This document shows positions 10,514-60,550 of a DNA stretch of 64,000 bases, in pieces (the first letter of the stretch is position 1; every line of letters starts with the position of its first letter). A model generated the notes under the pieces. The model did not search any database. It saw only the letters and a list, made by a program, of their open reading frames with translations, and was not told the DNA's origin. This DNA comes from a virus. Lineage: Duplodnaviria; Caudoviricetes. A program made the position numbers and the translations under genes. The stretch lies in the IMG/VR virus record IMGVR_UViG_3300033075_001021. One strand, 5' to 3'.

Positions 10514-10739
10514 AGTCAATGTTATTTTTGTATATCCACAAATGATTGTAAAGATTAAAAATTGTTAATTCAATTTGAAATGCTGGAGTATGTTCACCTA
10601 AAAACCTATCAAAATTAATCTTAAATTCAAAAAAGGTAAATCCGTCAGAAAGCTTTCGTATTGGGGCAAATAGTTGTATTTCCCAAAGTAATTTCTTTTT
10701 TTTCCATAAGGTACCAAACAATACAAGTCCGATATTCAT
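10500..10739 (-). CDS. Hypothetical protein
   Basis: 79 aa ORF. Confidence 0.55.
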   Translation of the reverse strand: MNIGLVLFGTLWKKKKLLWEIQLFAPIRKLSDGFTFFEFKINFDRFLGEHTPAFQIELTIFNLYNHLWIYKNNIDYEYE

Positions 10740-10816
10740 ATCTTAACAATTTTACAAGGTTTATTATACTTTTCACAAAGAGAAATGCTATGTTGTGTTC
10801 CACGTGAAATACCATT
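10736..10816 (-). pseudogene. Displaced 3' end of the SLOG/DUF2493-like gene
   Basis: NGISRGTQHSISLCEKYNKPCKIVKI* aligns ungapped with DQKSKGTLHSINLAKELKKPIRIITF*. Confidence 0.8.
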
Positions 10817-11385
10817 TATTTTATAATATTTTTATCTTTTAAATTAAGATATACTGAGCTAATCCAATGTATAAATTCATCGTGATGGTATTTGTTTTTG
10901 ATGAAATTACATTTTGAACAACATGGAACGACATTATCTAAATAATACCCTTTTTCGTTATCTAATCTGTCAATACCATTAAACTTATAAGGTCCATTTA
11001 ATTTTTGTTTTTTAAACTCAAAAATAGGTTCAGTTCCGCAATAATAACAATCGGATTCAAAGATTTTAATCATCTCCTCATCGGTTAGATTAAAACTGAT
11101 TCCTTTAAATTTTGCATTATGCCTATAATTGTAAATCAATGCGTTTCGATTAGCTATTCCAAATGCTTTTCTCCTTTTTGCCCCGTAATCAATTTCTTTT
11201 TTTATACAACCACAACTTTTAGTATGGTTATTAACTACTTTAGATGCTTCTACTATTACTATATTTCCACAATCACATTGACACTTATATTTTTTTCTTT
11301 TATAAGAAGCTTTTGGCATTACTTCAATAATCAATAATTTATTAAATTTTTTTCCGATTAATTCATCTTTCTTATTTTGTTCCAT
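10816..11385 (-). CDS. HNH-type homing endonuclease
   Basis: CQCDCGN...SCGC; CYYCG...GIDRLDN.KGY..DNVVPCCSKCN. Confidence 0.85.
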   Translation of the reverse strand: MEQNKKDELIGKKFNKLLIIEVMPKASYKRKKYKCQCDCGNIVIVEASKVVNNHTKSCGCIKKEIDYGAKRRKAFGIANRNALIYNYRHNAKFKGISFNLTDEEMIKIFESDCYYCGTEPIFEFKKQKLNGPYKFNGIDRLDNEKGYYLDNVVPCCSKCNFIKNKYHHDEFIHWISSVYLNLKDKNIIK

Positions 11386-11419
11386 TAGTATTACTTTAAT
11401 AATAAATATAGCAATGGAA

Positions 11420-11761
11420 CTAAAAGGTTATAATTCGTATCGGTTTTTTTAATTCTTTAGCTAAATTAATTGAATGTAATGTCCCTTTTGATTTTTGGTC
11501 CCAAAATGCAATTACATAATCAGCATTTTTGATGATATCTTCATTACGTATAAAGCCAGCTGATTTACCATATTTGTCCCATTCAGGTAGAAAGATAAGA
11601 GTATCTATGCCGTGTCTTTCAGCCCACTGTTCACCCATCTTATCAGCACCTTTGGCACCACCTGACACAACCAATTCGATTTGAAAAATCAATGGGTTCA
11701 ATGTTTCATTTAATAAATCAATGTCATTGAACCCACGACTCCCAATAATGGCTAATTTCAT
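11420..11761 (-). CDS. SLOG-family (DUF2493/YspA-like) protein
   Basis: IIGSRGF, VSGGAKGAD, AGFIRN, FWD..SKGT. Confidence 0.8.
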   Translation of the reverse strand: MKLAIIGSRGFNDIDLLNETLNPLIFQIELVVSGGAKGADKMGEQWAERHGIDTLIFLPEWDKYGKSAGFIRNEDIIKNADYVIAFWDQKSKGTLHSINLAKELKKPIRIITF

Positions 11762-11988
11762 TATTTGGTCTTTTTTGATTTTACTGGTTTGCTTTTGGCC
11801 AACTTTTCAGCCAAGCCATCTTTCATCAAAATCGCAACCAATGTTGAATGCTCTTTTGATTTGTAATAAATGGACTTTTCCCTGCGTCCATTAAAAAATG
11901 CCAATTGAGTATCTCTATCAATGGCGTACCACAAATCTTCATATGGATTGTACCAGAAGATGTAGTTGTAAAGGTTCATGCTATTCAT
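11761..11988 (-). CDS. Hypothetical protein
   Basis: 75 aa coupled ORF. Confidence 0.55.
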   Translation of the reverse strand: MNSMNLYNYIFWYNPYEDLWYAIDRDTQLAFFNGRREKSIYYKSKEHSTLVAILMKDGLAEKLAKSKPVKSKKTK

Positions 11989-12696: not shown

Positions 12697-12787
12697 TATT
12701 TACATTTTACACAAAGATACAAATATTTATCGATATAGTCAAGTTGACAATAAAGAAATAAAATCGTATATTTGTAACATAATAGAC

Positions 12788-15301
12788 ATGAACCGTGAAA
12801 TTTACCCAAAAGTCAAAATTATCATCAATAAGGCAATGCAAGAAGCAAAAAACCTAGATGATATTAAAATAAGACCTGAACACATAACACTATCTATACT
12901 AAATGATGATAATGAATGTGTTGATGCTCTTAGGAATTTAAAAGTTGATACAACAGAAGTAGTGGAGAAAATTATTGACTTTCTTAGAAAGGCCGACTTA
13001 ACACCAAGAGTATCACAAAGCAAAAGAGTTAGATTACCATTTTCAGATGAATCGAAAGAAATTATCAAAACTCTTGATAAAGAATGTGAAGCTATGAATG
13101 ATAAGATGATTAACTTAGCACATCTTATGTTAGCAATATTAGCACATCGAACACCAGCAACTAAAATATTTTCAGAGTTCGGTGTAACATATAACAGTTT
13201 TAAAAAAACAATCATGGAAGACAACAACATCAAAAATGACAGAATCGACGACGATTTTAATGACGAATTTCCAGAAGAACAAGAACGCTTCAGAAGAATG
13301 AAAAAGAAAAACGAATCCACCAAAACACCCGTTTTAGATAATTTTTGTCGGGACATTTCTAAAGCTGTTGAAAAAGGAACCATTGACCCTGTCGTTGGTC
13401 GTGAAAAAGAAATCAAACGCATTTCACAAATCCTTTCAAGAAGAAAGAAAAATAACCCAGTATTGATTGGTGAACCAGGCGTTGGTAAAACATCTATCGT
13501 TGAAGGTCTAGCCCAATTAATTAAAGACGGAAATGCACCAAGAACAATTGCCAATAAAAAAGTTTATAGTTTAGATTTAGCTGCAATTGTTGCTGGTACA
13601 AAATATCGTGGACAGTTTGAAGAAAGGATGAAAGCTATCCTTGAAGAATGTAAAGGAAACCCAGACGTAATCCTTTTTATTGATGAATTACACACTATTA
13701 TTGGTGCTGGTAACGCTTCTGGTTCATTGGATGCATCCAATATCTTTAAACCAGCATTAGCACGTGGAGAAATTCAAATCATTGGTGCGACAACCTTGGA
13801 TGAATATCGTGAACACATCGAAAAAGATGGTGCCCTTACCAGAAGGTTTCAACAAGTTCTTGTTGAAGAACCAACACTTGAAGAGACAAAAATCATCTTA
13901 AAAAACATCAAAGACAAATATGAAAAACACCACAAGGTTCATTATACCGATGAAGCTATTGAAGAGTGTGTTAAATTGTCTGACAGATATATCATGGAAC
14001 GTTCAATGCCAGATAAAGCAATTGATGTGTTGGATGAAGCTGGCGCTGCAACAAATGTAAGCCTTGAAAAACCACAATCTGTCAAAGACCTTGAACTTAA
14101 AAAAATCGAAATCCTCAATAGAAAGAAAGAAGTTATCAGCAAACAAAAATATGAAGAAGCTGCTAAACTAAGGGATGAAGGTGCTAAGATTGATGAACAA
14201 CTCTCAAACGCACTAAAAGATTGGAGTGCAAGGCTTGAAAAGAAAGTCACCACTGTTGGTGTTGAACAAATTTCTGAAGTGGTATCAATGATGACTGGTA
14301 TCCCTCTAACCAAAATTTCAACCCAAGAAAGCAAACGCTTGATGAACCTTGATAAAGAACTAATGGGTCGGGTTATAGGCCAAGATGACGCTGTTACAAA
14401 AGTCGTTAAAGCAATCAAGAGAAGTCGTATTGGTATCAAAGATAAAAACAAACCCATAGGTTCATTCATTTTCTTAGGTCCAACTGGTGTGGGTAAAACC
14501 TATCTTGCAAAACTTCTTGCCGAACATGTTTTTGGTGATGAAGACGCACTTGTTAGAATCGATATGACTGAGTTCATGGAAAAACATACAATATCAAGAT
14601 TAATTGGCGCACCTCCAGGTTATGTTGGTTATGAACAAGCTGGTCAATTGACTGAAAAAATTAGAAGAAAACCACACAGCGTTGTATTGTTTGATGAAAT
14701 TGAAAAAGCACACGAAGATGTTTTCAATATCCTTCTTCAAATAATGGATGAAGGTCACATAACCGATGGCCAAGGTAGAAAAGTAAACTTTAAAAACACT
14801 TTAATTATCCTAACCTCAAACGTCGGTGTTAAAGAACTTAGTCAATTCGGTACAAGTGTAGGTTTCCAAACATCCACTTCTTCAACCAATGAAGATGAAA
14901 GGGCAAAAACAATTATTGAAAAAGCACTCAAGAAAAAGTTTAAACCAGAATTCTTAAACCGTATCGATGAATCAATAATCTTTAACGGACTTAAAATGGA
15001 AGACATTCAAAAAATCATCCACAAAGAAATTGAGAAACTTGAAGCGCGTATTGGTGAAGTTGGTTACAAAATTAAATTGAATAAAGCCGCTATTGAATTC
15101 TTAGCCAAAGAAGGTTACGATGAAGAGTATGGCGCTAGACCATTGGCAAGAACCATTCAACGTTATGTCGAGGACCCCGTCGCCGACGAAATACTAAGCG
15201 GAAATGTTAAAGATGGCGATGTAATCAAAATCATCTTTGATAAGACCAAAAATGAGATTGTCGTCAAATCAGATAAGACAGCCAAAGTCGAAGAAGAATA
15301 A
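12788..15301 (+). CDS. clpC: ClpC/ClpA-B family AAA+ chaperone
   Basis: Clp-N domain, GEPGVGKT and GPTGVGKT Walker A motifs, [12 protein letters not shown]-like middle coil. Confidence 0.93.
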
Positions 15302-15344: not shown

Positions 15345-15746
15345 ATGAAAGCCACAATAAAAAAATTGTTAAATGAGCGATTATTGGATAAACATTCAGA
15401 AGAACAAGTTGCTCTTTTAAATGAATTTGTTGGATTTGCTGCCGATTTTTTGGGTATCAAAAAACCTAAAATAGTCTTACAATACGGACGTGATGGGTTA
15501 ACAACTACCGCCGCTTATGTTGACGGTAAAATACATGTATATGCAAAAGAAAGGGCGATTGTTGATATTATGAGGTCTATAGCCCATGAGATGACACATC
15601 TTAAACAAGACGTTGAAAAACGCTTAGAAAAGAAGGACCATATTAAAAATAATGCGGCTGGTTCACCAATAGAAAATGAAGCAAATGCCAAGGCTGGGGA
15701 AATAATGAGAAAATTTGGTGAAAATCACCCAGAAATATACATCTAA
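15345..15746 (+). CDS. Zincin-like (HExxH) protein
   Basis: RSIAHEMTH...ENEANA. Confidence 0.7.
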   Translation: MKATIKKLLNERLLDKHSEEQVALLNEFVGFAADFLGIKKPKIVLQYGRDGLTTTAAYVDGKIHVYAKERAIVDIMRSIAHEMTHLKQDVEKRLEKKDHIKNNAAGSPIENEANAKAGEIMRKFGENHPEIYI

Positions 15747-16618
15747 TGAAAGAAGCGTTATTACAGAAAGCAAAAGAACTGGTTAACACAAGACCAATCA
15801 AAGGATATTCGGCTAAACCACTTAAGGATGCTGCCAATACCGATATGACGTTATTTGCTCAGTATCTTTTAAACATTGCGGAACAAGCTATGGACCCAGC
15901 AAGCTTAAAAGCAACCATTGAAACTTATACCAAAGATTTAGTTGACATAGCACGATTATTTGCTAAGGAAAATCATGCGCTTAATGAGGAAAAAATAAAG
16001 GGTGGTAAAGCAGATAATTTATCAATTGATGATATCGCAAAAAAGTTTGACATCAATCCATCTAAAATTAGAAAAGAATTAGTCATGGGGGTGGAAGTTG
16101 AATTAGAACATACAGATAGCAGAACAACGGCCAAGGAAATTGCAATGGACCATTTATCTGAAATTCCAGATTATTACACCAGATTAAAAAAGATGGAAAA
16201 AGACGGAAGTAAGAAATGGACAACAGAATCAACTGTATTAATTAAGAAATTATTACATGAGGGGTTAAAATACAACGCCGCATCAACTTTGCTACTTGAC
16301 TTTGGTTTTTTAATTTCAAATAATTTTAGTCAAATAACAAAAATGGGTAAAGATGCAACAGCAACCAAAGAATTAAATCTTATGATGCAGAACCTAAGAA
16401 AACCAATCATAAACGGTCAAAACTATTTTGAAATCACTAAAGATGTTAATTCAGTAATAAGAAATCCAAAAATGTTATCAGCTGTTCTAGGAAAAATAAG
16501 AGAGTTTTTAATATATATTGAACCTAGAATACAAAAATTTGTTATTGATAATGAATTTAAAAAACATTGGTTGGAAAAAATCAATGGATTAAAATCCCTA
16601 TATAGAAGTATAATTTAA
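15746..16618 (+). CDS. Mosaic protein with a DUF5661-like module
   Basis: MGVEVELEHT...AKEIAMDHL.EIPDYYTRL. Confidence 0.65.
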   Translation: MKEALLQKAKELVNTRPIKGYSAKPLKDAANTDMTLFAQYLLNIAEQAMDPASLKATIETYTKDLVDIARLFAKENHALNEEKIKGGKADNLSIDDIAKKFDINPSKIRKELVMGVEVELEHTDSRTTAKEIAMDHLSEIPDYYTRLKKMEKDGSKKWTTESTVLIKKLLHEGLKYNAASTLLLDFGFLISNNFSQITKMGKDATATKELNLMMQNLRKPIINGQNYFEITKDVNSVIRNPKMLSAVLGKIREFLIYIEPRIQKFVIDNEFKKHWLEKINGLKSLYRSII

Positions 16619-16771
16619 ACCAATATATTCGTGACTAAAACATATACGTTTGTTATCAGCATAATGAGCATTGTAAACATTTTTATGTGTCACATCCTTT
16701 CTTAATTTTTTATTCTTGCTTGTTGGTTTCCATAAAGGCGAATGTTCACGGTAATAACCCATACGTGGATG
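16598..16771 (-). pseudogene. Displaced 3' end of the GNAT gene
   Basis: HPRMGYYREHSPLWKPTSKNKKLRKDVTHKNVYNAHYADNKRICFSHEYIG versus HPRMIWYREHSPLWKPTSKHKKLRTDITHKNIYNNHYGDNKRVCGSFEYIG. Confidence 0.92.
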
Positions 16772-16811
16772 CTTTTACTACTTTTCCACATATTTATTAA
16801 TAAATTGCAAT

Positions 16812-17528
16812 ATGCCGAGAAGATTAACAACGCAACAATTCATTGAAAGGGCCAATAAAATTCATAATAACAAGTACGACTATTCAAAAACTAAATTTGT
16901 TAATAGTAAAACTAAAGTTATTATTATTTGCCCAATACATGGGGAATTTGAACAGTTTCATAACAAACATCTATCTAAAAAGGGATGCCCAAAATGCGGT
17001 TTTATATCAAGATGTAACTTAGCAAGAAGTACTTCACATGATTTTATTACCAAAGCGATAAAAATTCATGGTGATAAATATAATTACGATAATGTTATTT
17101 ATACAGGTAAAGAAAATAAAGTAACAATAATTTGTGAAAAACACGGAAGCTTTAATCAAACACCACATAATCATTTAGCTGGAAATGGTTGCCCACATTG
17201 TAGAGAATCAAAAGGTGAACGTGAAATAAAACAATTTTTAATTGAAAATAATATTAAGTTTATACCACAAAAAAGGTTTAAAGATTGTCGTCACATATTA
17301 CCACTACCTTTTGATTTCTATCTTCCTGAATATAATATGTGTATTGAATATCATGGTATACAACATTTTAAACCGAGAAGTAAATTTGGTGGTGAAATTG
17401 AATTTAAGAAAGTTGTTTTAAGAGATAAAATAAAAGTTGAATATTGTATAAAAAATAAAATAAAACTTAATATCATAAAATATAATGACAATCTTTTAGA
17501 ATTACTTACATCCTATGTACTCAAATGA
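16812..17528 (+). CDS. Homing endonuclease with CPxHG zinc repeats and a C-terminal PD-(D/E)XK (Vsr/Hef-like) domain
   Basis: Two IICxxHG..CPxC repeats; SKGE..I, LPFDFYLP...CIEYHGIQHF. Confidence 0.8.
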   Translation: MPRRLTTQQFIERANKIHNNKYDYSKTKFVNSKTKVIIICPIHGEFEQFHNKHLSKKGCPKCGFISRCNLARSTSHDFITKAIKIHGDKYNYDNVIYTGKENKVTIICEKHGSFNQTPHNHLAGNGCPHCRESKGEREIKQFLIENNIKFIPQKRFKDCRHILPLPFDFYLPEYNMCIEYHGIQHFKPRSKFGGEIEFKKVVLRDKIKVEYCIKNKIKLNIIKYNDNLLELLTSYVLK

Positions 17529-17981
17529 ACCACAAACCCTTTTATTATCTCCATAGTGATTGTTATAAATATTTTTATGTGTTATGTCTGTTCTTAATTT
17601 CTTATGTTTACTAGTTGGTTTCCACAAAGGTGAGTGTTCTCTATACCAAATCATGCGTGGGTGGGCCGTTCTAGAAAAGTAACGTAACCCCTGTTCTAAG
17701 TGAATCTGACCTATTGCATCAGAAAACCTTACCCCAATACCCATTCCTTGAAAATCTGGCAAAATAACGGTCCTATGACCCCTCCAAGCGTTTTTCATGT
17801 TACCATTAGGTAAAGCAAGACTGGCACAAAACGCAACAACCTCATCATTCCAAACACCAACATAACATCTTGCGGCCTTATTGATATCTCCACTCAAATA
17901 ATGATGGTCTTTAAACATGGGCCAGATATGATGGCTTGCTGGATAAATCTCAATTTTGATTTCTGGACGGGCAAAAAAAAA
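17502..17981 (-). CDS. GNAT acetyltransferase domain, -1 frame continuation of the ABC ATPase
   Basis: RPEIKIEI...WPMFKDHHYLS...RTVILPDFQGMGIG (acetyl-CoA motif A); frame is open through the T9 run at 17973-17981. Confidence 0.8.
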   Translation of the reverse strand, partial: FFFARPEIKIEIYPASHHIWPMFKDHHYLSGDINKAARCYVGVWNDEVVAFCASLALPNGNMKNAWRGHRTVILPDFQGMGIGVRFSDAIGQIHLEQGLRYFSRTAHPRMIWYREHSPLWKPTSKHKKLRTDITHKNIYNNHYGDNKRVCGSFEYIGCK

Positions 17982-18967: not shown

Positions 18968-19012
18968 TTAATGAGCGTATTTGTCACCACCATAGCTTGC
19001 TGCCCAAGCATC
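18968..19012 (-). pseudogene. Displaced 3' end of the YkuK-like gene
   Basis: DAWAASYGGDKYAH* versus ESWAASYGGDRYCH*. Confidence 0.88.
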
Positions 19013-19778
19013 ACCTAAATTTACAATTTTCAAAATGCCATCGCTTACCGTTTCCGATATCAACAACTTTATTACAGTATGGACATCTTGTTTTTGGTTG
19101 TTCTTTACCTTTATTATGTGCTTCCTTTCCTTTATTTGGATGTACATTTAAACGATAATATTCTTTTAATTTTTCAGATTGAATTTTATTTAATTCTGGG
19201 TTATTTTGTCTAATTTTCTTTTGTGTTTGCGATATTCTTTTCTTTTCTTCTTCTGATTTCGGCCCTGTTGAAACACCCTTATTCCACGCAGTTTGTTTTC
19301 CCTTAACACCTTTATTCCAAGGCACCCTACCCACAGATGGATGTTTAGTTTTTTTATACTTTTCTTTTAATGATATAGATATTTTTTGTTTTATTTCATT
19401 TGTTGGTGTATATGGTTTACCATGATATATGACTTCACCGTTTTTATACCGTTCTTTTAATGTTTCTGAAATTTTAGTTTTAGAATCTTTTGATAATATA
19501 CCATTACTCTGACCCCCAGTTTTTAGATTGTAGGTATCCTCACGATTAACCCAATTTTCGGTTACATATTCTTTTTCTTCCTGAAGTAATTCTTCTAATG
19601 AATTACAATATTTTAATATTTCACGTTTAAAATTTTCCTTTCCGTATTTTTTTAACGCTCTTTTAAAAGCTAATCCGCTACCTAAATACCCGTCATCCAA
19701 GTTTTTAGTTTGATGAATTCCAATGTAAACCTTATTGTTAATTAAGTTAGTCGTCTTGTACAAAATAAAATACTGCAT
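19011..19778 (-). CDS. GIY-YIG (Seg-like) homing endonuclease with NUMOD3-like repeats
   Basis: ILYKTTNLINNKVYIG..YLGSG..F.REIL..YNLKTGG; K.KIS and PWNKG repeats; start reassigned to 19778. Confidence 0.9.
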   Translation of the reverse strand: MQYFILYKTTNLINNKVYIGIHQTKNLDDGYLGSGLAFKRALKKYGKENFKREILKYCNSLEELLQEEKEYVTENWVNREDTYNLKTGGQSNGILSKDSKTKISETLKERYKNGEVIYHGKPYTPTNEIKQKISISLKEKYKKTKHPSVGRVPWNKGVKGKQTAWNKGVSTGPKSEEEKKRISQTQKKIRQNNPELNKIQSEKLKEYYRLNVHPNKGKEAHNKGKEQPKTRCPYCNKVVDIGNGKRWHFENCKFR

Positions 19779-19830
19779 ACTATTATTTTTAATAATAAAT
19801 ATGCAGCATCTTATAATGAGGATAAAAAAA

Positions 19831-20340
19831 TTAATGACAGTAACGGTCTCCCCCATATGAGGCGGCCCAACTTTCGGGCTTAATTTTGAACTCATATCCC
19901 ATACCAAGTATGTAACCAACAGCGTGGCTAAGAGCCTTGTTAGACTCCCACCTTGGGTCTGGATTAATGTCGGCGTGTATTTCCATCTTAACACCGTACT
20001 TTTCAAGGACAGGAGAAATTTCGTATGCTACTTCAATAGACTTACCTACTTCCATAATCATTCTTTCATTAACACCTTCCTTGTCCTTCTTGAAGGTATT
20101 CATGTGGTAAGTAGCAGAGATTATCTTACCACCTCTACCCACAGATACACCATCGCCAAGATTCTCCCTAACAGTAATCAATATTACTGTCGCAAACTTA
20201 TATCCTCTACCACTCCTTTGAGAGTCAGTACCTACGGAAATCCTTAATTCATGATTAAGGGCCATTTCTTCTTGAATCAAGTTGTCAAGATAATCGTTAA
20301 TTGGCATGTCAATTTTTTTGCCAGCTCTTTCCCACTTCAT
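19831..20340 (-). CDS. RNase H-like YkuK (DUF458) family protein
   Basis: VGTDSQ, ER...EV.KS, EIHADIN, KP.SWAAS...D. Confidence 0.8.
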   Translation of the reverse strand: MKWERAGKKIDMPINDYLDNLIQEEMALNHELRISVGTDSQRSGRGYKFATVILITVRENLGDGVSVGRGGKIISATYHMNTFKKDKEGVNERMIMEVGKSIEVAYEISPVLEKYGVKMEIHADINPDPRWESNKALSHAVGYILGMGYEFKIKPESWAASYGGDRYCH

Positions 20341-27644: not shown

Positions 27645-28556
27645 TTAAAAATCAATGTTTCCTTGGTTCACGTTGAATGCAAAGATACCTAAATTATTCC
27701 ACATTTCCAAAACTTGTAAACGGTCATCATAAACACATAACACATTGTACTTGTCTTGAAGATGCGTTTCATAGATTTCTCGCTTCACTACGGTATCTTT
27801 CCTTTGGTCATCCTTCGGGCGCATATACAATTCATCAAAATGAATATCATGAAACCTCAACCACTCTTGTGTCTCTTCTCTACATACCTCATCACGACCA
27901 CTTACAAGAATTATCTTACGCCCCAGATTCTTATGAAACTTTACTTGCTCAGCCACAATATTATTCACATCATCAACATAAACCCTTTTCCAATCAAATG
28001 GCCCACGCTTACCCATAAGAGCTAAAGTACCGTCAATATCAAATACCACGGCATCTTCTAATTCCGAATTGAAATCGGGAACCACCGCTGGACGCTGTTC
28101 AATCTTCTTCACAGGCTGAAAATCAAACGAATCAATGAGAACTTTATAACTCTCGTACATCTTCCTTATCACACCTTCACCAACCTTTGCCTCCCTTGAA
28201 TTATCACGCTCGATAGCCTTATTCAAAGAAACGTCAAATACTTGATAGTCAATATCTGCTTGGTATTTAAACCGTTCAACAATCTCATCAATATACTTGC
28301 GCTTAAGATTGGTATTATCTACAATGACATTCAATCTCTTCATAAGTGCCGATTCAATAACCTTAAAGGTCAACGACGTAATCATATCCTCAATCTTATT
28401 CTCACACATAGCAGCGTCCTTTAACATGCTCCTGAAGTCATCACGGTTAACCCTGACATAGTTTGCATGTTTACGTACATACTCCTTCGCCCATGTGGAT
28501 TTACCACTGGCTGGAATACCAATCAATATCAATATTTTTAAATTATCCTTTTTCAT
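27645..28556 (-). CDS. pseT: Polynucleotide 5'-kinase/3'-phosphatase (T4 PseT-like)
   Basis: GIPASGKSTWA, NRDD.R, DNTN; HAD DIDGTL, SGR, DDR. Confidence 0.9.
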   Translation of the reverse strand: MKKDNLKILILIGIPASGKSTWAKEYVRKHANYVRVNRDDFRSMLKDAAMCENKIEDMITSLTFKVIESALMKRLNVIVDNTNLKRKYIDEIVERFKYQADIDYQVFDVSLNKAIERDNSREAKVGEGVIRKMYESYKVLIDSFDFQPVKKIEQRPAVVPDFNSELEDAVVFDIDGTLALMGKRGPFDWKRVYVDDVNNIVAEQVKFHKNLGRKIILVSGRDEVCREETQEWLRFHDIHFDELYMRPKDDQRKDTVVKREIYETHLQDKYNVLCVYDDRLQVLEMWNNLGIFAFNVNQGNIDF

Positions 28557-41292: not shown

Positions 41293-41658
41293 TCAGTATT
41301 CGCAGGGTAGGAGAAGCACGTTATCAACCAACCAAATTGTGGCTTCCTCATAGGGGAAATCTGAATAAGGTATTTTTTGGCTTGTTACTTGGTTATTGTT
41401 GCCATCTTCGCAGGTCAGCAGGTAGGCATCATTTCCAGCGTGTTTAAGTTTCCAAACTTGAAAAGGTTGCTGCCTTACTTTGGTGTGTACTTGGTGGCTC
41501 AGGATTGCATCCAGCAGCCAAAAGGCTTTGCACATTTCGGCGAGGTGTTTAACGCCGTCTGTGATTGTATGCTTTGGAAATAGCGGTGAATATCTGTACC
41601 AGTTGTCAGTACCGCCAGCGTGTTGTGCGAGGTCGGTGTTTGCATTTTGTTTTTTCAT
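41293..41658 (-). CDS. DUF6876-like protein, copy 2
   Basis: Close paralog of 39353..39718, including flanks. Confidence 0.75.
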   Translation of the reverse strand: MKKQNANTDLAQHAGGTDNWYRYSPLFPKHTITDGVKHLAEMCKAFWLLDAILSHQVHTKVRQQPFQVWKLKHAGNDAYLLTCEDGNNNQVTSQKIPYSDFPYEEATIWLVDNVLLLPCEY

Positions 41659-50353: not shown

Positions 50354-50404
50354 GATTAATATTTAGTTTAAGTACTCACGTGTACACAATTGTGTGTATA
50401 CATG

Positions 50405-50512
50405 TTACTTGATTGGTATCGATTTATCGATATCAGCGTCGCTTAGGGCGCTCGTGGCATTCATCTTAAGATACCTTCGCTCACCATCCTTAGGGTGTGA
50501 CCTATGTCTGAA
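50405..50512 (-). pseudogene. Displaced 3' end of 51250..51537
   Basis: FRHRSHPKDGERRYLKMNATSALSDADIDKSIPIK* versus FRHRNHPTDNQLKNLSVNAIGIITDDDIEKVIPVK* (ungapped, same length). Confidence 0.85.
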
Positions 50513-50606
50513 CAAAGATAACATTATTTTTCCAAATCACCAAAATAATTTAGTCATAGTGCGCATACTTTTTATAAGTACGTGATATTTAATTAAAAAG
50601 ACTATT

Positions 50607-51266
50607 ATGCCACACAAAGACAAAGAACAAAAACGCCAATATGATATTGAATATCGTAAACGTAATGCTGAGAAAATCAAACAACGTAAACAATCCCCAG
50701 AGTATCTTGAAAAGAAACGTCAACGGGATAAAGAATATGCTGCTAAAACCAAAGAACAAAAACGCCAATATGATGCCGAGTATCGTAAACGTAACACTGA
50801 GGAAAAACGATTACGTGATAAACAATACTATGAAGCCAATAAAGAACGTATTAAAGAACAAGCTAAAGTATATCGTAAAAGCAATCGAAACAAAATTAAT
50901 CAGTACCACTCTGAGCGTAAAAAGAATGACCCGTTGTATCGATTAACTCTTGCAACACGTGCTTTAATAAACTCTTCACTTAGAAGAAAGGGGTATACCA
51001 AAAAATCAAAAACATTTCAGATATTGGGTTGTTCTTATAATGAATTTAAACAATATCTCGAAAAACAATTTGAGCCTTGGATGAACTGGGATAATTATGG
51101 TTTGTACAATGGTACTGAAAATTATGGTTGGGATATTGACCATATCATCCCATTAAAAACGGCAAAGACTGAAGAAGGTGTTCTAAAACTGTGTCATTAC
51201 AGTAACCTCCAACCTTTATGTAGTTATTATAATCGAGATATTAAAAAAGCTACTTTACAGGAATAA
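50607..51266 (+). CDS. HNH/EndoVII-like homing endonuclease with a repetitive basic N-terminus
   Basis: KEQKRQYD.EYRKRN repeats; LGCS...YLEKQF...WDNYG...WDIDHIIPL...HYSNLQPL. Confidence 0.8.
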   Translation: MPHKDKEQKRQYDIEYRKRNAEKIKQRKQSPEYLEKKRQRDKEYAAKTKEQKRQYDAEYRKRNTEEKRLRDKQYYEANKERIKEQAKVYRKSNRNKINQYHSERKKNDPLYRLTLATRALINSSLRRKGYTKKSKTFQILGCSYNEFKQYLEKQFEPWMNWDNYGLYNGTENYGWDIDHIIPLKTAKTEEGVLKLCHYSNLQPLCSYYNRDIKKATLQE

Positions 51267-51761
51267 CCTTTTCAATATCGTCATCTGTTATTATACCAAT
51301 AGCATTGACCGACAAATTTTTAAGTTGGTTATCAGTTGGGTGATTTCTATGGCGAAAAGAATGAATTGTGACGCCTTTATGGCCACGGAATGACCCCATA
51401 TATTGCCAAGCTTCACCATTGTCTTCATTAAGCGCTACCATGGGTTCCGTTAGGCCTTCATTGAGCGGGTGCTTAGCAAGCCATTCCCACATTTTTTTCC
51501 ATTCGTTCGAATCAGTTTTGATTAGTACGTATTCCATTATGCAAATGTATGGTCAATTACGCACAAAGTCAAGGACTTTTGATTTAACAACGTCTGATGA
51601 ATGTAATTTCGCCAAGCGCTGAAAGATAACGGTTTCATTTCTGAATCCACAGTGGTTACCGTTTCAGGGACGGAATCATTAAATTGGTCAAGCTTTGTCC
51701 GCTGTACCATTACTTTACCCAAATGTGCATGGTTGATACGGAATGTGTCAAATACTGGCAT
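51250..51761 (-). CDS. Two hypothetical genes (51250..51537, the endonuclease target; 51537..51761)
   Basis: ORF track plus promoters. Confidence 0.65.
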
Positions 51762-52253: not shown

Positions 52254-54022
52254 TTAAACCCAATCCAAAACTAAATTGGAAGAATTTTGTAACATCCAAT
52301 CGATTATATAATCTTTTGGTACGGTGCTTTTAATGTCATTGACATATCGATACCCTTCAATGTCATCGAGCCAAAATTTACCATTCATATTGTGATACCA
52401 TTCAGGTAATTTTTTATTCTTTGTGTCATAAACACAACAAGAAATTTTAATCAAGTTAGCCCTTTCCACTTTTTTAAGATGCTTCATTGCTTCATGCATC
52501 AGGGTTATCTTGCTGGTCATAACACCCTCATCTAATGGGGTTTTTATGAACACTTGTTCCCTGTCATGGAAAGTATAAATCATTTCAAGTACCATAATAT
52601 TTGATTTTGAATGTAAAGTTAAGGTTAATTTTTGAATCTACCAAATAAAAAAAGAGCTATCTTTCGATAGCCCCTTTTTCTATAATCAATCAATCATGCA
52701 CTAATGGTTTGAATCGCTTTTGCTGGTCTTCAGGAAGATAAGCGATGAGATTTTCTTCAGGTACAAACCTTAACAGCTCGAATATTGCCGATACGTCTCC
52801 AGCCTCAATATCTTTCTTTATCTGCACAATAGCAGTATCAATCAGGTCGTCTTCATGCATACGCTTTTGAAGACGTTCAATAGCATCTTTATCTTCAGTA
52901 TTCATATATTTAATTTGTTGACAATTAACAATAGTAAATGGAAGTGCCATGAAAAGTATAAGTGGAAGTAGCACAAACCAATCACCCACAATAAAATATT
53001 TTATGATAAATTGTTTGATGCGTTTCATGATACAAAGATAAGGGTATTTTCTGAATCTACCAAATTATAATGTAACAAGTTGGCAATAATCATCCAAATC
53101 AATCAATGGTATTCTACCATAATTCGCGGATGAATAATACCCTTGTTGTTCATAACGCTTCTTCCATTCCCTGTATGCTGCAAGGGCTTTCTTCTTTGAT
53201 GAATAGGTATCTGTTGGATGAATACTAAACCCATCGGGGGAAAGCACATCATATTTTACTTTTGCCATGATACAAAGATAAGGTTATTTTCTGAAACTAC
53301 CAAGAAATTACTTGAATTCTTTTTCCGTCACTTCCTTCCCATTCGGTTTTCACACCGTTGGCATTGAGAATGTCACAGATTTCCTGTGCATCACCAGCCC
53401 ATGCCAAATGAAATGGTTTTCCCTTTACCTTATCCTCATTGTCTTGACCATGATAGAATACAGCCTTTTCAGCTTGTTTATCAGTCATTGCTGCCCAGCC
53501 GCATGATTGGCAACACCAAAAGTTTTGTTTGGCAAAATAACCAGCTTTGCGTAAAGCCCTGAATGCTTTGTTGAGATTTGCGTTATTCATGATTGATTAA
53601 TTTTGTAACACAAAGATAAGGTTATTTTCTTAAACCACCAAATATTTTTATACTTTGGTGATAAGTTGTTTTTCAACCTTTGTGATATCTCCACCAGCGC
53701 CCCATTGCCAAAAACCTGACAAATGCACTGCGTGTTTAATAACGTCTTCCAGCTTACCCTCAAAGTAACCCAAAAGTGGTTGATGATGATGCCCACCCAT
53801 ATCACAGTTAGGGTCTTCACCTCTTACTTCCCACAAACCCACTTCATCCAGCGTGTGTTTTTTTAACAATCGCTGTCCACCGTAACGCTGAAGAAAGTTA
53901 TTTACCTTATCGTCTTCATGAAGACGGTGCATATCTTCTTTGAGCTTTTCTTTTCTCTTTTCCAGCTCTTTGATTTGCTGGTCAATTTTTTTGATTTCGG
54001 CGGGAATATTTGCTTTGTCCAT
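52254..54022 (-). CDS. Five small genes (52254..52595; 52690..53028; 53065..53268; 53297..53590 DUF6891-like; 53648..54022)
   Basis: Each has its own promoter; AF..L...G..A.QNFWCCQSCG in 53297..53590. Confidence 0.65.
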
Positions 54023-54357: not shown

Positions 54358-54663
54358 TTACCAGAATAATGATGTTCTTAACTTCACCTTGCTCACAATC
54401 CATTTGGTAATTTCATCAGCCCAATAACTTGTGGAAAGGTCGCAAAGGAAATCAGCCAGTTCACGTTGAACATTCTCTGCATCAGCGTTGAATGTCTTAC
54501 GGGTAAATTCCTTTGCATTGCTTTGGTTACTGCTCCGTCTTGAGCCAGTGGAGAAATCCCACTCTTTCCCAATAACGGTAATTTGTTTGTCTTTCACTTC
54601 AACGGTGATAACGCCACCTTGTGCTACTTCACCTAATTTCCATGTTTTAGTTGCCTTTGCCAT
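54358..54663 (-). CDS. 101-aa RNA-cassette-associated protein, copy 1
   Basis: Paralog of 56193..56498 (MAK.TKTWKLGE). Confidence 0.75.
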   Translation of the reverse strand: MAKATKTWKLGEVAQGGVITVEVKDKQITVIGKEWDFSTGSRRSSNQSNAKEFTRKTFNADAENVQRELADFLCDLSTSYWADEITKWIVSKVKLRTSLFW

Positions 54664-54754: not shown

Positions 54755-55829
54755 TCATGCACGGAGTTCTTTATACACCCCCCATTTTTCTTCAGGGAGG
54801 TACTGGATGAGTTGTTCTGTTGGGCAATTACTCAATAATTCCCATATCGCCGATACATCTCCAACCTCAATATCACGTTTGATTTCCTCGATAACGGTAT
54901 CGATTAAATCATCCTCCAATTGTCGGCGGGATTCAATCTCATCACAGTGACAGCCAAAACCATCTACTGCTGGACAATCAGGGTCATGTTGTAATTCGTT
55001 TTCCATAATACTTTAAACTTTAACAAGCTGGCAATAATCCGCTAAGTCTTCTAACGGAATTCTGCCGTAATTTGTGGATGAATAATAACCCTGCCTTTCA
55101 AATCCTTTCTTCCATTTCTCGAAAGCGGCAATGGCTTTTTTCTTTGAGGAATATGTGTCTGAGATGTGGATGCTAAACCCATCGGGGGAAAGTACATCAT
55201 ATTTTACTCTTGGCATTGTTATTCTTCTTTAAAGGTGATACCTTCTTGACGTAAAACGCCCATCAGGAATAATTCTCTTGTGTCATTGGTATAAATACCT
55301 TTCCATGTATAAACACCGTTACCCATGTATCGAGCATACTTTTCAAAATTGGATTGATATTTCTTCTCCAATTTCTCACGTTCTGCTTTGGTTTTACCCA
55401 AACGACTTTCAAGATATTTGATTCTGTCATTCATGATACAAAGATAAGACTATTTTTTGAAACTACCAAATGTTTTTAGGTTGATAACCATATTAAGAAA
55501 TCTGATAGTTCGCAATTCTTTTTTGGAAAAATTGTTGTTCTCCATGAAGAATTTTTCCACTTTTTAATCCCCCTCAACCCACAAAAAGTTCTCCACTTAT
55601 CTTTTATCCATTCATCATTAGTGTTTTGAGTTATATCATGTAATTCAATATGATAATAGTGTCTTAATGAAACTGCTGAGTCATACCAAGCAATTGAATA
55701 CAGACCTAAATTTCCATGCTCTGATTTATCATTGATATCACGAATCATGAAAATATTATTGTGGGTCGACTTTGTTTCAATAGCAATACCTCTTGATGGG
55801 AATTCAAACCTTTTTTTAATGATTTCCAT
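54755..55829 (-). CDS. Four small genes (54755..55006; 55013..55216; 55219..55434; 55476..55829)
   Basis: First two are paralogs of 52690..53028 (C-terminal half) and 53065..53268. Confidence 0.65.
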
Positions 55830-55988: not shown

Positions 55989-56006
55989 CTTAAATATTTT
56001 TATTGT

Positions 56007-56185: not shown

Positions 56186-56192
56186 TTGTATA

Positions 56193-56498
56193 TTACCAGC
56201 CGTATTCAGGCTCCAGTTTAACTTTGGTTTTAATCCAGTCAATAACCTGTTCGGCGTAATAATGTGTTGTCAGGTCAGAAAGAAAGTCATACAGTTTACG
56301 ATACGCCTCCCTGTCATTAGCCAATACCGTTCCCCTTGTCCATTCCTTTGCACCACTTTGGTCGCTGCTTCGCTTTGTACCTTTGGACATATCCCATTCT
56401 TTGCCAATTACGGTAATTATCTTACCAGTAATTTCAACGGTTATGATACCACCCTTAGCCCACTCACCCAACTTCCACGTCTTAGTTGTTTTTGCCAT
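56193..56498 (-). CDS. 101-aa RNA-cassette-associated protein, copy 2
   Basis: Paralog of 54358..54663. Confidence 0.75.
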   Translation of the reverse strand: MAKTTKTWKLGEWAKGGIITVEITGKIITVIGKEWDMSKGTKRSSDQSGAKEWTRGTVLANDREAYRKLYDFLSDLTTHYYAEQVIDWIKTKVKLEPEYGW

Positions 56499-56551
56499 GA
56501 TTGATTATTTTTGTACCACAAAGATAAGGGTATTTTTGGTACTAACCAAAT

Positions 56552-58841
56552 TTATTTTCGGAATTCATTTACCTTTGCAACCAATTCGTCAAATTTCTCA
56601 AAAGTAACCAATTTACAGCCAACTGAAATGCCTTTAGTACTAATTATGGCATCATATTTATCTGTTAACTTTGGTACTACCCTTGTAGATACGTTTTTGA
56701 AAACCTCCTTTGCTACTTCAATTGCCCCAGCAAAATTAGTGTCTAAATCAATTGTATCAGGTGAACCTGAAAAAGACATTGCAGGTATATTTGGCATTTC
56801 CTTCCAATGTGCGCAGAAATAAATACAAGCATTTTGAAAATTTGTATAGTCATCTACCGATTCTTTTTTGTTAAATTCGGAATTCCAAACCCAACCAATC
56901 TTTTCACACTCTATAATGAATGCGTTGTAAACACTTGCAAAACGACTTTTAACGGCGAAATCTTTTTTCATGATTGATTAATTTACAACAAAGATAAAAT
57001 TATTTTTCTTAACCACCAAATAATTTTGCCAAAGATTTTTGCTGCTGAATCTTTTCCACAATATCCTTCTTGGTTAAACGATTGGCATATTGGAAATGCC
57101 ACGCATCCCACAAAGGTAAATGGATAAGTTGAACAGGCTTTGTTGCCGCTACCATGTATTCAGCGTAACCATCAGCAACAGGAAATTTGATTACTTCACC
57201 AATGTTTTCATCGGTTACACCCGCCCTTGCCGCACGGTCAACACACCACTGTTTAAGGTCTGCTTTAAACTTGTCGCAGTCCTTGTTGTATTGGTCAATG
57301 TCTTCCCAATTAAAATCAGGTACCTTGATTTGTTCAGGTACGTCATAAACCTTTGCCATAATGATTGATTTGATTATGAAGCAAAGATAGGATTATTTTC
57401 TGAAACAGCAAAAAAAACATCAACTATTTCAAAATTATTTTCTTTGGCCCACTGAACCGCTTCATCATGCGAAGCAAACCCTTCTTCAATCATATGGCCA
57501 GCTTCATCATGGATATCGAAGCTACCATCGAATTCGTATATTGTTGCTTGTTTCATATTACGCTAATGCCGCACCGATTAGAATACCAAATATCACACAA
57601 GCAAACAGAAACCCAGCGGCAAATGCCATTAATATTGCTTCGTATAGTTTGTTGTCTTGTTGCATATTGGTTAGATTTGTGGAAATTTGTATAACGTTCC
57701 TTTAGGTGCATAGCTTGTAGGGATAAACGTTCTGCTACCTTTTTCACTGATAACCCAATCAGCAAAGCCATGCCGCTTCATATAGTCCTTCATCCTATGA
57801 ATATCACACTCACGAATACGCATCGCTTCAGTCATTAAGGTAGTGTATGATACACCCGTATCGGTTAAGGCTTTCACCTTCTCACCATCTCTGTACTCCA
57901 AACCCTCAACCCAAACGATAAAGTATTTTTTCTTTCTCATAACACAAAGATAAGACTATTTTCTGAAACAACCAAATTAAATTTCAATAACACTAACAGC
58001 CCATTTAACTTTTTCTTTCTTATCTTCTTTAGATAAGAGAACAAATTCAACCCATGTATTTTCAGGGTTCAAGTTAAATAGTGGGACAGCTATTTCATAG
58101 CAACGCTGGGCCAACCAATCATATGTTACATGAAAGGGTGTTTCATGAAATTCACAATCATAGTCATAATCATCATCCTTTAACAACAACGTATTAGCAC
58201 GTACCAAAATATACAATGATTCGGGTACATCAACAACTTTCCGTTCGCCCTTAAAATAGAATGAAAACTTTACCATGATTATTAACTTTGTAACACAAAG
58301 ATAAGACTATTTTTTGAAACTACCAAAACTTTTTTTGTCTTTTTGTGAATTGGCTGGTTACGTCCCTTGGATTGCTGGTTTGTCCTTCAGCATAATAAAG
58401 GACGCTATGAACATGCTCATCCTCATGCATGTCTTCATTGATGAACTTTCTTACCTCATCTGGGGTATCAAAGTCTAAATGATTTTCTGTGTAATCATTA
58501 CCACCTCTTGTGGCTTCACGAACTTCAACGGAATAAGTACCTAACATATAGATTGATTTAATAGATTGCAAAGATAAGACTATTTTCAATACCCTGCAAA
58601 TTTATTTTGAATTCTTTAATACTTCACCAATAGCAGTGTGCAAATCTTTGAGTTGTTCCCTCGTCATACATGGAACCATAAGGGTATGAAAATTCATATT
58701 CCTTCTGTCGGCTCCACTATGCCCATCAGGATAAAGGTTATTATCTTCAATGGATAAGTAACCAACATCACCAGTCAAACCAACATAAATTTTATGCCCA
58801 TTTGCATAAGTTATTCTCTGTGCTAATTTTTGTTTTGCCAT
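56552..58841 (-). CDS. Run of small hypothetical genes (56552..56971; 57009..57359; 57374..57556; 57558..57665; 57671..57940; 57977..58276; 58320..~58547; 58602..58841)
   Basis: Promoter-headed cassettes; 57558..57665 is a 35-aa membrane peptide not in the ORF track. Confidence 0.6.
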
Positions 58842-58922
58842 GATACAAAGATAAGACTATTTTCAATACCAACCAAATAAAAAAAAAGAAAGGTACACAA
58901 ATGTGTACCGTTCCTTTGTATA

Positions 58923-59096
58923 TTAGCTTTCAGCAACCAACAACTCCCTGTATTCCTTCTCGGTCAGGTGTCGTGGTGTGGTAAGCGGTTTGTAAACTCC
59001 TTTCGGCTTAATCAGGATGCAATCACCTTGCCGTAGGATTTTCTCAATGTTGCCTTCGGGTACATCGGTTTGCATTGTCCATGCCACACATTGAAT
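58923..59096 (-). pseudogene. Displaced 3' end of 59879..60550
   Basis: IQCVAWTMQTDVPEGNIEKILRQGDCILIK...RHLTEKEYRELLVAES* versus IDCISWTIQTNVKKGGIEKIIRQGDCILIK...RHLTGEEYRTLLVAES*. Confidence 0.93.
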
Positions 59097-59162
59097 TTGA
59101 AAAATAGTATCAAAAATAAAGATTTTTCTTTACTTTAAACATATTTATATTAAAATAATAGT

Positions 59163-59882
59163 ATGAAAAAATTAACAACTGAAGATTTTATCATTAAAGC
59201 TAATTTAGTTCATAGCAACAAATATGATTATTCTTTAACAAACTATATTGGTAATAAAGTTAAATTAGATATAATATGTCCAATACATGGAAAATTTACA
59301 CAATCCCCACATCATCACTTGTCTGGTATTGGTTGTAACATTTGTGGCCGTGAAAAAACCATCGCATCAAGACGATTAACAACTGAAGATTTTATCATTA
59401 AAGCTAATTTAATTCATAACAACAAATATGAATACTCAAGAGTTGAATATCTTAATGATAGAACAAAGATTAAAATTATTTGCCCTATTCATGGAGAATA
59501 TACACAACGACCAATAGCACATTTACAAGGTTGTGGGTGCCAAAAATGCAAAGTTGATAACTCTGGATGGAACTATCATCTTTGGGAAAACGCAGCATTC
59601 AATTCAAGATATTTTGATTCCTTTAAATTATATGTAATTAAATGTTGGGATGAAAACGAAACATTCTATAAAATTGGAAAAACATTTAATAAAATAGATA
59701 CTCGATTTAAAGGTAAAATCAAATTACCATATAGTTGGTCATTAATCAATATAATAAATGGCTCAGCAAGAGAAATTTCAGAACTTGAAGCCTCATTAAA
59801 AAGTAAAAATAAAAAACATTCATACACACCCAAAAAAGAATTTAGGGGAATGTACGAATGTTTTAGTATCAACCCAATTTAA
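59163..59882 (+). CDS. Homing endonuclease with CPIHG zinc repeats and a C-terminal GIY-YIG-like domain
   Basis: Two LTTEDFIIKANL.H.NKY...IICPIHG repeats; KLYVI...FYKIG.T...R...E. Confidence 0.75.
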   Translation: MKKLTTEDFIIKANLVHSNKYDYSLTNYIGNKVKLDIICPIHGKFTQSPHHHLSGIGCNICGREKTIASRRLTTEDFIIKANLIHNNKYEYSRVEYLNDRTKIKIICPIHGEYTQRPIAHLQGCGCQKCKVDNSGWNYHLWENAAFNSRYFDSFKLYVIKCWDENETFYKIGKTFNKIDTRFKGKIKLPYSWSLINIINGSAREISELEASLKSKNKKHSYTPKKEFRGMYECFSINPI

Positions 59883-60550
59883 GATTCGGCAACTAATAAT
59901 GTACGATATTCCTCGCCTGTTAAATGTCGCACATCACCAAATTCAGCGTTAGGTAAGGTTTTGATTAAAATACAATCACCTTGTCGAATTATTTTTTCAA
60001 TACCACCTTTTTTTACATTAGTCTGTATTGTCCAACTTATACAGTCTATTACATCGCTGGGTTTTACGTTCCATGAATTACCTTTAGGATTGTTGGTTAC
60101 AAACACGCTGCGAATATCAACCCATAACAGGTAATACCTGTCGGTGCTGGTATCTTTGAACCGAATGTAATAGGCATTTGCCAATTTCTGCCATCCTTCA
60201 AGTCCACCACTCAAAGCCTCACCATTCACTTCAAACAATTCGTATTTGTCGGTAAAATTGTGGGTTACTTCTTTGCCATCTTCAACCCACTTGGTTGTTT
60301 TCTTGATGCTTTCGCTGTTTATCAGCTTTGGCTTAACTTCGGCAACCAATCGGTCAATACCCAAACAGTTGATACCAACACGCCTTTCCTCAAGGTTTTT
60401 GAATTGGGCTATCTCCTTAAAGGTGAGGGGTTTAATGTCAGCCCAAAATTCTTCTAATTCAGGAAAAGGGCATTTTTCATGTTTCAATTTGAGCATACGA
60501 CAACCCATATCATAGTCAAACTTGTGATTGTCAATAACAATTTTTCCCAT
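59879..60550 (-). CDS. Hypothetical protein (endonuclease target)
   Basis: NLEERRV...DTSTDR.Y.LWV...RQGD. Confidence 0.7.
   Translation of the reverse strand: MGKIVIDNHKFDYDMGCRMLKLKHEKCPFPELEEFWADIKPLTFKEIAQFKNLEERRVGINCLGIDRLVAEVKPKLINSESIKKTTKWVEDGKEVTHNFTDKYELFEVNGEALSGGLEGWQKLANAYYIRFKDTSTDRYYLLWVDIRSVFVTNNPKGNSWNVKPSDVIDCISWTIQTNVKKGGIEKIIRQGDCILIKTLPNAEFGDVRHLTGEEYRTLLVAES

Follow-up and report, generated by a model that had tools for sequence, protein, structure and literature searches.

The usual classification of homing elements recognises introns, inteins and free-standing intergenic genes, and phage nucleases are usually described as intron- or intein-borne. Here we analyse five endonuclease loci, named E1 to E5, in 64,000 nucleotides (nt) of phage DNA (Duplodnaviria; Caudoviricetes; IMG/VR record IMGVR_UViG_3300033075_001021; this whole stretch is called the window), at each of which a free-standing nuclease gene lies between a host gene and a displaced copy of that gene's 3' end. 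The closest published analogue is the WHO elements of the aldolase gene FBA1 in Torulaspora and Lachancea yeasts, in which the unit consists of an endonuclease gene and of a resistance-conferring FBA1 3' region located upstream of it (Coughlan et al. 2020, PMC7282813). Integration of a WHO element gives the host gene a new 3' end and turns the old end into a downstream fragment that is a recombination arm; the 5' and 3' parts of FBA1 give discordant phylogenies, and serial integration builds clusters (PMC7282813). The WHO proteins are LAGLIDADG/intein-derived and contain a zinc finger; they act in meiosis, with a single essential nuclear gene as target, and their cleavage and allele specificity were shown experimentally (PMC7282813; doi 10.64898/2026.08.13.744650). 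A 2026 preprint places WHO elements in a third category, which it calls "considerably more rare" than introns and inteins; a term search of its text showed bacteriophages named in one passing statement, that prokaryotes or bacteriophages are where most homing elements occur, and no phage case is reported there (Osborne et al., doi 10.64898/2026.08.13.744650).

The "gene hybrids" formed by mobile open reading frames (mORFs) in atp6 of Allomyces macrogynus and in atp6, atp9, cox2 and nad3 of Glomus sp. (Beaudet et al. 2013, PMC3630166) consist of a foreign inserted C-terminus, an endonuclease open reading frame (ORF) of the LAGLIDADG or GIY-YIG family and the native C-terminus downstream; the native copy is 91-98% identical in nt to sister species and the inserted copy 64-81% (PMC3630166). 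The free-standing seg and mob nucleases of T4-like phages are HNH and GIY-YIG enzymes encoded outside introns, with their own middle- or late-type promoters, which co-convert flanking markers and target conserved gene motifs (Edgell et al. 2010, PMC2988022). The insertions described in that review are intergenic or divide a gene so that it encodes two polypeptides (mobE in nrdA, mobA in the topoisomerase gene, seg in gene 43; PMC2988022). For ICP1 and other phages, a survey of homing endonuclease genes (HEGs) describes T5orf172/CapR-type nuclease domains behind CapR/DUF723 zinc-finger arrays of varying repeat number, and HEGs as marks of genetic-exchange boundaries (Barth, Dunham and Seed 2023, PMC10448857). 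In the phage literature covered by our full-text searches, the T4 mobile-element review and the 2023 survey, we found no description of a displaced duplicate gene end.

We estimate at about 0.8 the probability that each locus of the window is a homing cassette, composed of a foreign and diverged 3' gene end (the current end), an endonuclease gene that is free-standing and has a promoter box of its own, and, downstream, the displaced original 3' end of the recipient (the remnant). The window has about 34% G+C, is densely coding and is predominantly coded on the minus strand; megablast and tblastn searches of an annotated phage collection showed no close relative, with remote similarity to jumbo phages only. 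Read in the direction of the host gene, all five loci have a complete host gene, then the nuclease gene, then a start-less and stop-terminated copy of the last 14-57 codons of the gene, and uninterrupted host genes (empty alleles) exist among relatives. Self-BLASTP of all stop-to-stop segments of the window recovered the five duplicates, C-terminus to C-terminus and on the strand of the host gene, with E values from 5e-29 (E2) to 7e-3 (E1). The nuclease gene is co-oriented with the host gene in E1 and E3 and antisense to it in E2, E4 and E5, where the two stops overlap or abut. An ATATTTA box is located 22-24 nt before the ATG of all five nucleases, compared with six of about 117 other putative genes that have it at a spacing of 20-25 nt (Fisher p=2e-6).

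We then calibrated a duplicate detector, which accepts only copies that are adjacent to the insert and anchored on the stop codon, with virtual inserts in nuclease-free related loci as controls. The detector was positive at four of the five window elements and at 1/309 controls (0.3%); its sensitivity is about 80% on the window's own cases, and short or decayed remnants would escape it. It replaced an earlier version without the adjacency rule, which was positive at 8.7% of controls, a rate about equal to that at nuclease loci. An earlier reading of the window, made from the sequence only (hereafter the sequence-only reading), had claimed the shared layout, the two co-oriented and three antisense nucleases and the upstream ATATTTA motif, and the results above bear out all three claims at the five loci.

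All five nuclease proteins (nuc1 to nuc5) matched endonuclease or homing-endonuclease PHROGs. The nuc1 protein, which is HNH/endonuclease VII-like, matched PHROG 1035 (1e-18) and PHROG 374 (8e-17), had no Pfam match and showed a marginal PacI match only among PDB sequences. The nuc2 protein matched Pfam DUF723 and DUF4379 and PHROG 559 (8e-62), and a PDB sequence search with it found nothing. The AlphaFold model of its C-terminal domain (predicted local distance difference test score, pLDDT, 81) had Vsr (1cw0) and I-Bth0305I (3r3p) as top Foldseek matches (probability 1.00, template-modelling score 0.72 on the target, E about 3e-3), and E136, D168, E179, Q184 and H185 are invariant; the predicted structure confirms for nuc2 a Vsr-like PD-(D/E)XK homing-endonuclease fold of the I-Bth0305I type. 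The Pfam scores of nuc3 were below cut-off for both GIY-YIG (19.6 bits, cut-off 22.6) and SegE_GIY-YIG (18.7 bits, cut-off 25), and it matched PHROG 314, "homing endonuclease", at 5e-43; it starts at ATG 19778 and not at TTG 20006. The HNH match of nuc4 in Pfam was below cut-off (E=0.009) and its match to PHROG 1035 was at 2e-6, which makes a weak family call. The nuc5 protein matched PHROG 681 at 2e-44, has a T5orf172-like motif read by eye and contains zinc-finger repeats related to those of nuc2 (47% over 132 amino acids, aa). Among the family labels first given to these proteins, PD-(D/E)XK for nuc2 thus holds, HNH for nuc4 is weak, and "GIY-YIG-like" for nuc5 has no Pfam support, its assignment being based on PHROG 681 and the by-eye motif. 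A Pfam scan of 20 single ORFs of the window showed no further nuclease among them, and the window may hold nucleases beyond these five.

The sample for E2 comprised 80 IMG/VR loci with a homologue of the host gene, most of them with a single uninterrupted gene and about 13 with the same antisense nuclease; in 11 of the latter BLAST could also detect a remnant. Wherever the common site is used, the remnant begins with the same His-Pro-Arg codons (codon 86), and in three loci a longer nuclease variant goes with a remnant starting at codon 52. The nucleases inserted at codon 52 of this same gene (L042, L053, and L103) have a third N-terminal zinc-finger repeat, which suggests retargeting by repeat gain. 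Cassettes of both site types carry the same short A-rich terminal sequence after the promoter box, despite their different sites. The identical E2 junction was reused in at least four resident lineages, each with the remnant of its own lineage (L099 with L105, L103 with L067, L033 with L044, and L043 with L048). One locus (L053:4001-6482) contains a double cassette in series, made of the host gene, a three-finger nuclease, an 86-codon Ile-type remnant, a two-finger nuclease and a 51-codon Gly-type remnant; this is a serial invasion, parallel to the clusters of WHO elements in yeasts. In the window, the last 27 nt of the E2 nuclease gene overlap the new 3' end of the host gene, and the remnant is convergent with gene 15746-16618, an arrangement that intact alleles have in relatives too.

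Between L099, which has the nuclease, and L105, which is nuclease-free, nt identity falls from 91.8% in the 5' part to 67.3% in the current 3' end and returns to 89.5% across the remnant. The same comparison between L103 and the nuclease-free L067 gave 90.2%, 78.0% and 94.9%, respectively. In both pairs the right junction is base-sharp and the divergence on the left side climbs gradually over tens of bases, as expected for co-conversion. The sequence-only reading had proposed separate phylogenies of the 5' and 3' parts as a check, and for E2 these are discordant. In the tree of 153-nt 3' segments, the six nuclease-linked ends, including that of the window, formed one clade (SH-like approximate likelihood ratio test, SH-aLRT, 95) with zero nuclease-free alleles inside, and the remnants were dispersed among the nuclease-free alleles. 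When the 5' parts of the same genes were used, this clade was rejected (log-likelihood difference 49.6; p=0.034 in the approximately unbiased, AU, test, for a group picked after inspection of the 3' tree). The current end of these genes is foreign and is inherited together with the nuclease.

We compared 33 distinct nuclease-free Gly-type alleles, six distinct remnants and seven distinct nuclease-linked ends, from 30 nt upstream to 45 nt downstream of the E2 junction. The only fixed difference near the junction was a change of GG to AT in codon 90 (Gly to Ile), located 12-13 nt inside the remnant boundary. Ile was present in 7/7 nuclease-linked ends and Gly in 6/6 remnants (Fisher p=6e-4), and this pattern makes the Gly-to-Ile substitution a candidate for the change that confers immunity to the E2 nuclease.

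The relatives of the E4 host gene were not found by a pattern scan of IMG/VR, which gave none; a large protein database later gave 53 homologues. The N-terminal part of one of them, P0002, matches the E4 host gene, and its last 35 residues are identical to the E4 remnant of the window. The alignment of the window with the nuclease-free contig of P0002 (L148) breaks off at position 51361 (87% nt identity up to there) and resumes at position 50512, with 98% nt identity from there through the remnant to position 50367. The window therefore carries an insert of 848 nt (50513-51360), which consists of 111 nt of new 3' end and of the antisense nuclease with its promoter. The insertion point is the invariant FRHR motif of the host gene, three of the four codons of which are synonymously changed in the new end. 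Like codon 90 in E2, this recoding is indirect evidence that the nuclease would cut empty alleles and spare the new end. At the right edge of E4 (50511-50552, minus strand) there is also a sequence resembling a promoter of the Bacteroidota type (TTTG, a gap of about 19 nt, then TATCTTTG), which ends exactly at the remnant junction and faces the remnant and the gene after it; comparable copies of 22-23 nt are located upstream of minus-strand genes (56987-57008 and 60572-60594). Judging from these letters, an outward promoter may come with the E4 cassette and re-establish transcription downstream.

For E3, the host gene was followed directly by the gene that follows the remnant of the window in 20 of 20 relatives, so the insertion is clean. 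The C-termini of the two closest relatives, L146 and L128, which are nuclease-free, were 93% and 79% like the remnant and 64% and 57% like the current end, respectively. A search from the nuclease side showed that L194 and L195 carry the E3 cassette, with a nuclease of 60% and 55% identity, a conserved promoter box and a remnant of 13-14 codons right after the nuclease stop, which in each of the two resembles the C-termini of a different nuclease-free lineage. Extra DNA after the host gene in L133 and L135, considered as a nuclease insert, was rejected because it contains cargo genes and no nucleases. At E1 and E5, similarity patterns alone point, more weakly, to a foreign end. The closest relatives of E1 in the 5' part (L112-L116) were 64-68% identical to the remnant and 48-52% to the current end, and the E1 remnant has a stop codon that shares bases with the ATG of the gene after it (10500-10739), an arrangement expected of a native gene end. 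For E5, 24 of the 31 relatives were closer to the remnant than to the current end.

These arrangements could arise as follows. In a co-infection, the nuclease would cleave a host-gene allele that lacks the cassette, at or close to the start of the remnant, and the break would be repaired from the cassette-bearing genome, the 5' part of the gene serving as left homology arm and the remnant as right homology arm. The outcome would be a chimeric complete gene, the nuclease gene and the old 3' end of the recipient shifted downstream. As the new end would differ at the target, the invaded allele would escape further cutting, and neither RNA nor protein splicing would be required. The comparative check of this mechanism, which the sequence-only reading had proposed, gives it strong support for E2 and E4 and good support for E3, while E1 and E5 contribute weaker similarity patterns. 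Its expectation that empty alleles read the 5' part and the remnant as one ORF agrees with what we found in L148 for E4 and in L105 and L067 (the siblings of L099 and L103) for E2, and the host genes of L146 and L128 end like the E3 remnant.

Several observations weigh against the homing cassette. We infer cleavage, the cut site, nuclease activity, immunity and present-day mobility. The E1, E4 and E5 cassettes were found in no other contig searched, and repeated mobility as a unit is thus seen only for E2 and E3. The remnants of E1 and E3 are short (21-25 and 14 codons), with modest statistics taken alone, and the choice of the AU-test group after the fact belongs here as well. L150, with 92% protein identity, has a current-type E4 end and no nuclease, and the spacer downstream of this end is homologous to the one that follows the E4 remnant of the window. 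A current-type E4 end therefore also exists natively; L150 is plausibly a donor lineage or a product of precise loss. Gly was absent at codon 90 in 27 of the 65 nuclease-free E2 alleles, so resistant-looking alleles are common, and they could be donors, survivors or ex-carriers after loss of the nuclease. L150 and these 27 alleles together indicate that the new end also occurs outside the cassette. Nuclease-free relatives with the current end had been named in advance as evidence against the sequence-only reading, and they do exist in part, side by side with the remnant-type ends of L148, L105, L067, L146 and L128; the cassette model expects such current-type free alleles as donor-type, resistant or nuclease-loss products. 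A relative of nuc4 (45% identity) is located, with a 55-aa ORF, between a neighbouring 73-aa gene and the homologue of the E4 host gene (L151:2094-2911), both being antisense and overlapping the 3' end of the 73-aa gene. In L151-153, where this relative is upstream of the host gene, no remnant of the neighbouring gene was found, and the nuc4 lineage thus also occurs in an ordinary intergenic layout. Finally, among 105 IMG/VR loci with relatives of nuc3 or nuc5 and adequate flanks, the layout was present in two (L194 and L195 only), and it is not a general habit of these two nuclease families.

These points bear most directly on the alternative that survives best, in which the nucleases are ordinary intergenic homing endonucleases and each duplicate is a scar left once, when two diverged phages underwent illegitimate or unequal recombination, so that the remnant is no working part and the 3' end and nuclease are not repeatedly mobile together. 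We consider this improbable for the set of five loci, and it may apply to some of E1, E4 and E5. The lack of a second instance of these three, the current-type end that L150 has natively without a nuclease, the plainly intergenic nuc4 relative of L151-153 and the 103 of 105 loci in which no remnant was detectable next to relatives of two of the nucleases would all fit a scar. A scar does not account for E2 insertions that share one exact junction in four or more resident lineages and have lineage-specific remnants, for the recurrence of E3 in three phages, or for a layout found at five of five window nucleases and at 0.3% of controls. Duplication of the 3' end in place when the nuclease inserted, with later divergence of the copies and no foreign import, is very unlikely: the copies are homologous and within about 1 kb of each other, but the remnant is 90-98% identical in nt to nuclease-free siblings, against 67-78% for the current end, and the current ends of different phages cluster together and not with their own remnants, which contradicts in-place duplication for E2 and E4. 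Splicing of the insert as a group I/II intron or an intein, with the remnant as second exon or extein, has practically no chance of being correct, since each host ORF is full length relative to its homologues, with a stop of its own ahead of the insert (so that no splicing is required), the remnant repeats sequence already in the host gene instead of completing it, three nucleases are antisense and the nucleases have their own starts, and no Rfam family matched anywhere in the window, all in line with the earlier remark that no intron or intein is evident.

The homing cassette also has relatives at several stages of decay. The remnant of L035 has an internal deletion, only the first 15 nt of the remnant are left in L036, and only the C-terminal codons of the nuclease are present in L104. 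In L055 and L056 (4456-4506), a 17-codon remnant of the other allele class comes directly after an intact host gene with no nuclease, probably as the footprint of a lost cassette. The window itself contains a relic at about 62494-62611 (plus strand), which corresponds to the last 35 or so codons of a nuc5-like (T5orf172-like) nuclease, is antisense to gene 62618-62890 (minus strand) and abuts its stop; the rest of the nuclease gene is deleted and no host-gene remnant was detectable there. The suggestion that gene-end replacement is a general strategy in this phage group holds in so far as E2 and E3 recur in relatives; it does not extend to E1, E4 and E5, which were found only here, or to the 103 of 105 loci with nuc3 or nuc5 relatives that have no such layout.

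We lean slightly towards a broader proposal, that gene-end replacement by a WHO-type mechanism may be a common and independently evolved homing route for free-standing nucleases of any fold in large phages. The remnant would be the working right arm and the imported end would provide immunity (in E2, by one Gly-to-Ile codon), gain of a zinc finger would retarget the nuclease within the gene, and repeated invasion would fuel an arms race in small accessory genes and make their C-termini mosaic.

Coordinates of the features of E1 to E5 and of the paralogous small-gene pairs in the window
Element	Feature	Position	Strand	Description
E1	Host gene	11420..11761	-	113 aa, SLOG/DprA-like; PHROG 289/768
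E1	Imported 3' end	11420-11497	-	About the last 25 codons of the host gene
E1	Nuclease	10816..11385	-	HNH / endonuclease VII-like, 189 aa, co-oriented with host gene; PHROG 1035, 374
E1	ATATTTA box	11403-11409
E1	Displaced native 3' end	10736..10813	-	25 codons + stop
E1	Self-BLASTP match	11420-11761 (host) vs 10739-10831	-	48% over 21 aa, E=7e-3
E2	Host gene	17502..17918	-	138 aa, GNAT-like, downstream of ABC-type ATPase gene
E2	Imported Ile-type 3' end	17502-17663	-	Codons 86-138
E2	Nuclease	16812..17528	+	Two DUF723-type zinc-finger repeats + Vsr-like PD-(D/E)XK domain; antisense
E2	ATATTTA box	16790-16796
E2	Displaced native Gly-type 3' end	16598..16771	-	51 homologous codons from codon 86, then own tail + stop
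E2	Self-BLASTP match	17502-17918 (host) vs 16601-16774	-	78% over 51 aa, E=5e-29
E3	Host gene	19831..20340	-	169 aa, PHROG 11311
E3	Imported end	19831-19875	-	Last 14 codons
E3	Nuclease	19011..19778	-	GIY-YIG (SegE-like), 255 aa from ATG 19778, co-oriented with host gene
E3	ATATTTA box	19796-19802
E3	Displaced native 3' end	18968..19012	-	14 codons + stop, starting at nuclease stop codon
E3	Self-BLASTP match	19831-20340 (host) vs 18971-19147	-	71% over 14 aa, E=6e-4
E4	Host gene	51250..51537	-	95 aa, no known family
E4	Imported 3' end	51250-51360	-	111 nt; invariant FRHR motif synonymously recoded
E4	Nuclease	50607..51266	+	HNH-like (weak call), 219 aa, antisense; 17-nt overlap with 3' end of host gene
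E4	ATATTTA box	50585-50591
E4	Displaced native 3' end	50405..50512	-	35 codons + stop
E4	Self-BLASTP match	51250-51537 (host) vs 50408-50536	-	42% over 40 aa, E=3e-9
E5	Host gene	59879..60550	-	223 aa, no known family
E5	Imported end	59879-60049	-	About the last 56 codons
E5	Nuclease	59163..59882	+	Two zinc-finger repeats + T5orf172-like C-terminal domain; antisense; stop overlaps host-gene stop
E5	ATATTTA box	59141-59147
E5	Displaced native 3' end	58923..59093	-	About 56 codons + stop
E5	Self-BLASTP match	59879-60550 (host) vs 58926-59129	-	59% over 59 aa, E=3e-17
	Paralogous small-gene pair	39353-39718 / 41293-41658
	Paralogous small-gene pair	54358-54663 / 56196-56504
	Paralogous small-gene pair	53065-53268 / 55013-55216

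The rest of the window contains a ClpB-like double AAA+ protein of 837 aa (12788-15301, plus strand), an RNA repair pair composed of a polynucleotide kinase-phosphatase and an RNA ligase (27645-28556 and 29872-30510, both minus strand) and two ORFs with matches to the thymidylate synthase family. Across 37-58 kb, short repeated matches of N-terminal or intergenic parts are numerous, and the members of the three pairs of full-length paralogous small genes listed in the table have 59-80% aa identity and are separated by about 2 kb.

The third category of homing element, gene-end replacement, was named on one yeast gene, and the window presents five cases in 50 kb with four nuclease kinds. If the phage cases hold, this category may be less rare than described and not bound to one nuclease family. 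In phage genomes, displaced ends explain mosaic protein C-termini and one class of short "orphan" ORFs, stubs that annotators can treat as relics; the loci also offer ready-made pairs of putatively sensitive and resistant targets for tests of nuclease specificity.

Comparison of the phage loci with T4-like seg and mob genes shows phage-borne nucleases outside introns (HNH and GIY-YIG in T4-like phages, putatively so for nuc1, nuc3 and nuc4), a promoter of their own, co-conversion of flanking sequence (in the window, a predicted one) and a conserved gene motif as target in both, whereas the T4 review mentions no gene-end replacement with a displaced duplicate (PMC2988022). The repeated zinc fingers of variable number in nuc2, nuc5 and the three-repeat variants are like those of ICP1-type HEGs, but a term search of that survey turned up no duplicated or displaced host gene ends (PMC10448857). 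The mORF hybrids share with E2 and E4 a remnant close to nuclease-free siblings and a diverged current end; unlike the phage cassettes, they are organellar, usually co-oriented and often in frame with the host gene, with no antisense cassettes and no separate promoter box. The likeness to WHO elements includes replacement of the host-gene end, displacement of the old end as a fragment, 5'/3' discordance, serial clusters (here L053) and independence of splicing. The differences are that the nucleases are HNH-like, GIY-YIG, Vsr-like PD-(D/E)XK and T5orf172-like and reside in a phage, in five small accessory genes, that three of them are antisense, that they have their own promoter box, and that cleavage and allele specificity are experimental for WHO elements, whereas for the phage loci we infer them. 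The phage loci work like WHO elements and are not members of that group by descent, as none has a LAGLIDADG/intein-derived, HO-related nuclease. The mechanism is therefore known from WHO elements and mORFs, and what is new here is its phage setting, its use by unrelated nuclease folds, its partly antisense arrangement and the promoter box carried by the cassette.

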